A DNA stretch of 64,000 nt from Escherichia coli (GTDB taxonomy: Bacteria > Pseudomonadota > Gammaproteobacteria > Enterobacterales > Enterobacteriaceae), in the NCBI RefSeq assembly GCF_045037415.1, contig NZ_CP173438.1; one strand, written 5' to 3'. Position numbers: made by a program. How positions within the stretch are numbered: the stretch's first letter is position 1; each line of letters opens with the position of its first letter. Shown piece by piece: positions 57,501 through 60,500 of this stretch.

Positions 57501-60500
57501 AAATTGAATATCTCAGCAGTGTTTGCCATAATTCCTCCCGCAATGAGTGTGTTACGATTTGCACCTGAAAGTCGGTTCTGTTCCAGCAGACCGGCTTTCG
57601 CCATTTCTGAACCTGTCATATCGCCCCCAGCATGGTAGTAACCATCGCCATCAATGGACCAGCCAGATCTGGGTCCACACGAAACATCGACACAATACCT
57701 TCACTAATTTCCTTCAGTTTCTGGTGGCGTGGTGCGTTGAGAATGACAGCCTGTTTTGCCTCACTGAGTTCCTTTTCCATTTCAGCCAACCTAGCCATGA
57801 AGCTATCCTGCTCAACCAGGTAACCGCGATATTCCAGCGGTAGTACCGCCAGAATTGCCGGGGTCAGTTCACGCACGTTATTTCGGTATTTTTCAGAATC
57901 GAATTTGTTATCGAGGAAGCGGAACAGCTTCTGGCGTGCACGGCTGACATCATCAGGGAAATCGATGGTGCCGCCGCCCTGCTCCAGATACTCATTCACA
58001 ATGAGTGTGGCAACGACATCCTGATTATCTACAGCCGACCAGGCGCGGACGGCATCACGGATTTTTTCGTGGCCTGGCACCTGTTTTGTTTGAGAACGAT
58101 TTATCACCGCAGTCGGGCTAAATCCGCTAGTCTGTTGGTATGTAAGTGGTTGCATAATTGACTCCTTTAGTTTGAATTGACTGTTAAGTTGATTGCTTAT
58201 TGTTAAAGAGCGTGAAATGGAAATTTAAGCTGCGTTCTTTTCGGTGTGTGGAAACAACTTCGGAAGATCCGGGCGAATCTGGTATGCCTTCACTACTCCA
58301 CCAGTAGCCGTAACAATGCTGCCGACATGTTCAGGGGATACCTTTGCTTTGTTGTGAAGCCACTTATAGACGGCCTGCTGTGAAACTTCGCAAGCAGCGC
58401 CCAGTTTCTTTTGTGAACCAACGATATTGATCGCTGTTTTGATAGCTGGGTTCATAACAACCTCCGTGGTTAATTTGAATCAAGATTAAAACTATGGTTG
58501 TTTTTAGTCAACAACCATTTTCGTTTGATGGAATAAAACCTTGGTTGTACATTTGGACTATGAAAACAACACTCTCAGAAAGACTTAAAGAAGCCAGATT
58601 AGCGCGAGGCCTTACACAAAAGGCGCTTGGGGATTTGGTCGGGGTTAGCCAGGCTGCTATTCAGAAAATCGAAACAGGGAAAGCTAATCAAACAACTAAA
58701 ATCGTGGAGATCGCGAACGCTTTGGGTGTGCGCGCAGAATGGTTATCTTCTGGCGTTGGAAATATGTCAGACAGTACAGTGCAACCAATACAATCAACTG
58801 TCAGCCATTCCAAATACTTCAAGATTGACGTTCTTGATATAGAAGTCAGTGCTGGGCCGGGAGTCATCAACCGTGAGTTTGTAGAAGTTCTACGCTCGGT
58901 TGAGTACTCGTTTGACGATGCTCGTCACATGTTCGATGGTAGGAAGGCGGAAAATATCCGCATCATTAACGTGCGTGGTGACAGCATGTCAGGAACGATC
59001 GAACCAGGTGATCTGCTGTTCGTTGATATCACAGTTAAATCTTTCGACGGTGATGGTATCTATGCGTTTCTGTACGACGACACAGCCCATGTAAAGCGCC
59101 TGCAAATGATGAAGGATAAGCTGCTGGTCATCTCTGATAACAAAAGCTACTCACCGTGGGACCCGATCGAGAAAGACGAGATGAACCGGGTGTTCATCTT
59201 CGGTAAGGTTATTGGGAGCATGCCGCAGACATATAGGAAGCATGGGTAGTACCAATTAAAAATTATCAACTGGGCATTGTGCTCATTCAGTAAAGAACTA
59301 ATTCCTATCTTTGCTCTAGGTAGTAATATTAAGCCACCGCAATAATATCTTTACCTAACGGCGTAAGAATCCCGGTCACCGTGCCGGGTTTTCTTTTGCC
59401 CTCCCCTCATCACACACACCGTTAAAAAAACCACCATAACCTCGCTTCAGTTATCGCTATGCGATTCAAGTCACAAAATAAATCCATCCTAAATACAACC
59501 AGTTATATCTAAAACAACCAATAAAACAACTTTTGTTGTTGACGATAAAACAACTATAGTTTTAAATAAGTTCATCGCAACAACACAACGATACGGCAAC
59601 TACCTGATTCACCGTTGCGATGACCGCTTAGATCCGCAGTTTGAATTTCAGCAGGCTTCGGGGAGTGCGAGGGGTGAAACGGACGCGTGAACGTCGGTGT
59701 GACCAGCTGAAATTAACTCAACATTTCATACCTTAGTCGCTTCAACGAGGCGGCTTAGTTATGACAACCGGCGGCCATCCACCGCCTGAATACGCGCAGA
59801 AGTCTCTATATGTTCAGCAGCCCAGCTTACGGGCAGGAGTTTTTATGGTTCATCAACATTACGGAACGCAGACCGTTAATCGCGGTGCGGTCATGCCAGG
59901 AATGCTGGTCAAACACAAAGATGGTACCTGGACTGCATCAGCTAATTTACGCGGACGGCTTTATCTGCATCGCGGCATCGAGCGCACTTATACCCGTGAT
60001 TTGCTCGTGGAAGTTTTTCTCGACGGACGCGGCAACGGCCTGAATCACTAATCCCCTTTCCTGTTTACCTAATCAGCCCGGCATTTCGCAGGCGATATTT
60101 TCACAGCCATTTTCAGGAGTTCAGCCATGAACGCTTATTACATTCAGGATCGTCTTGAGGCTCAAAGCTGGGCGCGTCACTACCAGCAGATCGCCCGTGA
60201 AGAGAAAGAGGCAGAACTGGCAGACGACATGGAAAAAGGTCTTCCACAGCACCTGTTTGAATCACTCTGCATCGATCATTTGCAACGCTGCGGGGCCAGC
60301 AAAAAAGCCATTACCCGTGCGTTTGATGACGATGTTGAGTTTCAGGAGCGCATGGCAGAACACATCCGGTACATGGTTGAAACCATTGCTCACCACCATG
60401 TTGATATTGATTCAGAGGTATAAAACGGATGAGTACAGCACTCGCAACGCTGGCTGGGAAGCTGGCTGAACGTGTCGGCATGGATTCTGTCGACCCACAG

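Follow-up and report, generated by a model that had tools for sequence, protein, structure and literature searches.

A close known relative of the gene discussed here is gam of phage lambda, the product of which is treated as two isoforms, GamL and GamS, the latter corresponding to residues 41-138 of the full-length protein (PMC5218532). The annotated gene is the long form: in NC_001416 it extends from 32816 to 33232 and encodes the 138 residues of GamL (NP_040618.1). The start codon of this long form is within kil, 46 nt from the 3' end of that gene, and is preceded by TTATAAAAA, in which, as read from the alignment, there is no Shine-Dalgarno-like purine run. The short form was used for the cryo-electron microscopy structure of the RecBCD-Gam complex (PMC5218532), and it is the form found in all solved structures. 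Both isoforms potentiate quinolones when over-expressed (PMC5218532), and over-expressed GamL is active, its potency exceeding that of GamS in some assays in Klebsiella (PMC5218532). We searched the literature for papers that say outright which of the two is produced in vivo and found none; those retrieved all describe GamL and GamS as a pair of isoforms. The Pfam and PHROG profiles for Gam are themselves 98 positions long, and the 40-residue extension of lambda matches no PHROG family.

Here, we describe the gam locus in a window of 64,000 nucleotides from Escherichia coli (contig NZ_CP173438.1), which is the whole stretch of DNA that was analysed; positions are those of the window, and features lie on the plus strand unless stated otherwise. 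It is our firm view, held with very little doubt, that this is the standard gam of a lambdoid prophage integrated beside icd in an E. coli of the ST131 type, that it encodes the 98-residue equivalent of GamS, and that GamL cannot be made from it. The coding sequence, as given in the ORF list, occupies 60127..60423, with an ATG at 60127, 98 codons, and a TAA at 60421-60423. RefSeq places WP_000995418.1 ("host-nuclease inhibitor Gam family protein," 98 aa, PGAP) at the same coordinates in identical ST131-type chromosomes.

The product matches known Gam proteins over its entire length. Against the Pfam Gam profile (PF06064, curated cutoff 25 bits), residues 1-98 align with positions 1-98 of 98 at 210.3 bits (E 3.7e-63), and the PHROG family phrog_259 ("gam-like host nuclease inhibitor") is similarly covered from 1 to 98 of 98 (E 1.9e-59). 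The GamS chains 5mbv_A and 2uuz_A also align end to end with residues 1-98 (E ~3e-59), and 94 of the 98 residues are identical to those of lambda GamS (95.9%), the differences being L22I, H55C, S61A, and Q91H. No Gam model of NCBIfam matches either the 98-aa or the 138-aa protein. By every criterion that can be tested from sequence, the locus belongs in the Gam family.

The first-pass annotation had proposed that gam is present only in the short form, with an ORF that begins at the internal start of lambda Gam, an in-frame stop close upstream, and the N-terminal extension of GamL missing. Exact translation and the alignment with lambda bear this out: the protein starts with MNAYYIQ, at the GamS start. 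An AGGAG Shine-Dalgarno sequence, read directly from the sequence, is found at 60115..60119, 7 nt before the ATG; in the alignment it is invariant among lambda, Perceval, and the window, and it is also kept in Salmonella phage SEN34. Upstream, exact translation finds the first in-frame TAA at 60070..60072, 18 codons before the start, and a second TAA at 60049..60051, 25 codons before it, which is also the stop codon of the preceding kilR-like gene; the same CACTAA ends lambda kil. Between 60073 and 60126, the 18 codons in the gam frame include no ATG, GTG, or TTG. GamL cannot be encoded because these two stop codons are in frame and no start codon intervenes between the nearer one and the ATG. 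An upstream in-frame start giving a product of GamL length, which would have overturned the original reading, was looked for by exact translation and is absent; no GamL-length product is possible from the window.

Alignment with lambda gam and its upstream region, which had been suggested as the check, reveals how this comes about. Homology starts exactly at CACTAA (60046-60051), and from there the non-coding kil-gam spacer (60052..60126) is ~95% identical to that of lambda, where the homologous DNA is read as GamL residues 16-40. The T-run at 60110..60113 has four Ts and that of lambda has three (window CCATTTTCAGGAG, lambda CTATTTCAGGAG), and at 60108 the window has a C where lambda has a T. 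Because the T-run is 1 nt longer, the upstream frame is shifted relative to gam, and it is this one extra T that brings two TAA codons into frame. Thus the bases at 60070..60072, which in lambda are split as C-TA-A within the GamL codons CTA ATC, become an in-frame stop (CC-TAA-TC) through a single-base difference in the T-run.

The second reason lies further upstream. The segment that carries the GamL ATG is missing from the window because lambda kil has been replaced by an unrelated gene of the Rac KilR type. This gene (59845..60051, 68 aa) sits where lambda has kil and encodes an FtsZ/cell-division inhibitor of that type; its product is matched by phrog_294 ("Kil protein for bacterial septation inhibition") with an E value of 1.3e-37, and by the Rac KilR model NF008465 at 63 bits, which is below the cutoff of 92 for that model. 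RefSeq names the gene "phage encoded cell division inhibitor protein" (207 nt), and a homologue is found in Salmonella phage SEN34. In RefSeq and in SEN34 alike, the product is given 68 aa, counted from an ATG at 59845 that is served by an AGGAG of its own. A mechanical ORF of 96 aa (59761..60051), in the frame of which a TAG lies at 59734-59736, and the 139-aa "Kil" CDS of Perceval were judged to be over-extended. In this mosaic, the switch from the kilR-type gene to lambda-like DNA takes place precisely at CACTAA, the stop that both have.

A locus capable of encoding GamL would have an in-frame ATG ~40 codons before the GamS ATG, an uninterrupted frame through the kil-gam spacer, as in the three-T allele CAGCTATTTCAGGAG, and lambda kil upstream, with the GamL start in its 3' end. 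The window has no ATG in that position, reads CAGCCATTTTCAGGAG with two in-frame TAA codons through the spacer, and carries the KilR-type gene upstream. Its GamL-equivalent frame is open only from 60000, following a stop at 59997-59999, has no ATG, GTG, or TTG start codon, and enters gam out of frame, to end inside it.

The spacer itself varies in length among related loci. Among the IMG/VR matches listed, the distance from CACTAA to the ATG is 80, 81, or 82 nt across 120 loci, and single-base variation occurs both in a C-run (5 or 6 C) and in the T-run (3 or 4 T). Single-base length variation of this kind is the behaviour of non-coding DNA. In a few alleles among the IMG/VR loci listed, the kil stop has been lost (CACTAC). 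The spacer of lambda contains a hairpin, GCCCG-N8-CGGGC followed by GATATTTT, that looks terminator-like and is situated close to the tL2c site. The stem of this lambda-type hairpin (60076-60099) is weaker in the window owing to a G-to-A change at 60090, and most IMG/VR haplotypes among the matches listed have a C-to-T change in its left arm. We considered whether the spacer might contain a terminator or some other functional RNA and rejected the idea, given that a terminator scan found none in the window spacer and that the predicted RNA fold is no better than that of shuffled sequence (z = -0.02), both for the window and for lambda. Similarly, an Rfam scan of 56000-64000 gave only a chance-level match, located elsewhere than in the spacer.

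How common, then, is the short-only arrangement? An exact-pattern scan of IMG/VR with 32 nt spanning the GamS start returned at least 120 contigs, and we tallied 123 loci, comprising 120 IMG/VR contigs among the matches listed together with lambda, Perceval, and the window. The short-only allele CCATTTT, with an in-frame stop and no upstream start, accounts for 90 of these 123 loci among the matches listed, and the lambda-like allele CTATTT for 32, of which 30 have the GamL ATG at codon -40; the one remaining locus has a further T-run variant. Among the matches listed, the upstream gene of the short-only allele is of the kilR type in 65 cases and of the lambda kil type in 24. In those four-T alleles that have the lambda kil ATG, the reading frame that it opens is only 50 codons long and terminates within gam, in a frame other than that of gam.

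We also searched 5426 complete E. coli genomes with a 401-nt query covering the spacer and gam, which identified 4076 places in 3188 genomes. The two alleles were separated with megablast queries of 43-44 nt, each of which has no 28-mer in common with the other allele. The four-T short-only allele was found at 2899 places in 2589 of the 5426 genomes, and the three-T lambda-like allele at 972 places in 900. These queries cover 3871 of the 4076 gam places, and ~5% of places are left unassigned. Short-only and lambda-like alleles are therefore present at approximately 3:1, with the former making up ~75% of gam copies; please note that this ratio is approximate because the E. coli collection is biased to clinical lineages and the IMG/VR figures are for the matches listed. 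In addition, RefSeq annotates 98 aa even in O157:H7 on an allele that is lambda-like, with three Ts and preceded by lambda kil.

More distant phages point in the same direction. By tblastn, Gam genes were identified in Shigella phage 75/02 Stx (82.7% identity) and Salmonella phage SEN34 (70.1% identity); both are annotated with 98 aa. In the former, an in-frame stop codon lies 2 codons upstream, and in the latter, 22 codons upstream, with no start between the stop and the gene in either phage. Both lack the extension, and the 98-residue protein is therefore the conserved unit. Judging from these comparisons, the short-only state is the usual and apparently the ancestral one of the Gam family, and the frame of GamL seems to have been derived within the lineage of lambda.

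Several other explanations for the short gene deserve consideration. The extra T might be a homopolymer error of sequencing or assembly in a gene that is truly lambda-like and encodes GamL, given that the difference sits in a short T-run, where some platforms miscall length. However, the same allele recurs at 2899 places in 2589 complete genomes, each assembled independently, and accounts for 90 of the 123 loci in the tally based on the IMG/VR matches listed. It is also linked to the neighbouring C/T substitution. Even with three Ts there would be no GamL, as the lambda kil segment with its ATG is absent and the frame has no start codon, and we put the chance of such an error at practically nil. 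Alternatively, gam may have decayed, losing a functional N-terminal domain in a degenerating prophage. The prophage has indeed received IS66 and cargo insertions, and the gene is shorter than the 138-aa lambda reference annotation, but its 98 residues span the whole of the Pfam and PHROG profiles and the whole of the crystallised, active GamS (PMC5218532). The gene has kept its ribosome-binding site and stop codon, bet and exo are intact behind it, the Gam proteins of the outgroup phages have the same length, and the free-living phages Perceval and 4A7 have the identical arrangement; decay is, in our judgement, very improbable.

Long Gam could, in principle, still be produced through ribosomal frameshifting on the T-run or through non-canonical initiation upstream. 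The context A TTT TCA around the T-run is superficially slippery, and two ATT codons occur within the 18 in-frame codons upstream. Against this, neither ATG nor GTG nor TTG occurs in the other frame as far back as the stop at 59997-59999, any in-frame non-canonical start would add at most 18 residues, and no structure that might stimulate frameshifting was detected (fold z = -0.02; no Rfam match). The likelihood of this route to a long product is, we believe, very slight. A gene that simply encodes the GamS equivalent remains the reading that we prefer.

The organisation downstream of gam is equally conventional. The bet gene (60429..61214; RecT-family annealase, Pfam RecT E 2.7e-33, annotated as bet by RefSeq) starts 5 nt after the gam stop, the same spacing as in lambda. 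It is followed by exo (61211..61891; lambda exonuclease with a YqaJ domain, Pfam YqaJ E 4.3e-30, also annotated by RefSeq), the start of which overlaps the end of bet by 4 nt. With gam directly upstream of bet and exo, the locus has the synteny of the Red module; gam-bet-exo is a canonical Red module of which gam is the first gene.

Positions 42000-64000 of the window are 100% identical to the E. coli O25b:H4-ST131 chromosomes NZ_OY019088 and NZ_CM190143, in which the integrase, the excisionase, and the prophage end adjoin icd just past the right edge of the window. Cargo is found at 48124-55652, between replication gene P and the nin region, and consists of an alpha/beta hydrolase (48124..49155), an IS66-family ISEc23 element (49182..51598, minus strand), and an inverse autotransporter of 1302 aa (51744..55652, minus strand). 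A gene for the serum-survival lipoprotein Iss (iss, bor-like) is located near the lysis genes.

The immunity region of the prophage, with its repressor, cro-like regulator, and YdaT-domain protein, resembles that of Rac more than that of lambda. The S24/HTH repressor ORF (58494-59249) has 251 aa from its first ATG; RefSeq annotates 229 aa, with an equivalent start at 58560. Divergent from the repressor are the cro-like regulator and the YdaT-domain protein (57616..58155, minus strand). Between the repressor and the kilR-like gene are ~595 nt (59250-59844) with no annotated gene, in which a terminator-like hairpin at 59371-59388 is followed by TTTTCTTTTG. Homologues of N and cIII are absent at 59250-59844, and phage Perceval has two extra genes at the equivalent position. 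The early-left promoter and operators are presumably located in this interval.

As to function, translation from the ATG at 60127, guided by the AGGAG at 60115-60119, would yield the 98-residue GamS-equivalent protein. This product is predicted to dimerise into a DNA mimic that plugs the DNA-binding channel of host RecBCD. Blocking RecBCD would protect linear phage DNA and recombination substrates, such that Exo and Bet could act on them. We infer inhibition of RecBCD (and SbcCD) from the 96% identity of the window protein to GamS, from which it differs at four residues.

It is important to consider what the two spacer alleles may mean. There is a small chance that the three-T/four-T polymorphism is a functional dimorphism rather than neutral variation. 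If so, about a quarter of natural gam alleles would additionally make GamL, and GamL-positive and GamL-negative phages would differ in how they inhibit host nucleases or defence systems. The amino-acid changes in the extension among three-T alleles (T6A, K13N, T17P, P18S, and P26L) are few, too few for a formal selection test. More likely than a functional dimorphism is that GamL is an accidental, lineage-specific extension of the ORF in lambda and is dispensable.

For those who annotate phage genomes, the practical message is that the 138-residue reference annotation of lambda (NP_040618) reflects a minority allele. About three-quarters of natural E. coli gam copies have no coding capacity beyond the 98-residue form, and the same is true of the more distant Shigella and Salmonella phage genes, which supports GamS as the conserved functional product. 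We recommend that 98-aa Gam genes should not be flagged as truncated against NP_040618. The gene in the window is correctly sized and conventionally organised; its arrangement is an ordinary one, which current annotation already reflects.

The comparison with known systems can be summarised as follows. The nearest relatives are Escherichia phages Perceval, 4A7, and Lambda_4C10, which share 99.1% identity with the window over all 801 nt of the region; the annotations of Perceval and 4A7 include the same 98-aa gam, and the Gam of Perceval differs from that of the window by one residue (99.0% identity). These three phages, and the WP_000995418.1 gam loci of ST131 and other E. coli, are 99-100% identical over the kilR-like gene, the spacer, gam, and bet. 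Lambda GamS (PDB 2UUZ, 2UV1, and 5MBV; residues 41-138 in UniProt-style numbering) has the same length of 98 aa, the same start context of AGGAG, 7 nt, and ATG, and the same position directly upstream of bet and exo; the window differs from it by four substitutions, by a spacer that is 1 nt longer and leaves no GamL frame, and by a KilR-type gene in place of lambda kil. Lambda GamL is homologous through its C-terminal 98 residues, and the DNA for its residues 16-40 is ~95% conserved in the window, but there it is not in the gam frame and TAA interrupts it, and nothing in the window corresponds to GamL codons 1-15, which in lambda form part of kil. It is thus the GamL reading frame of lambda that is peculiar, and not the locus described here.
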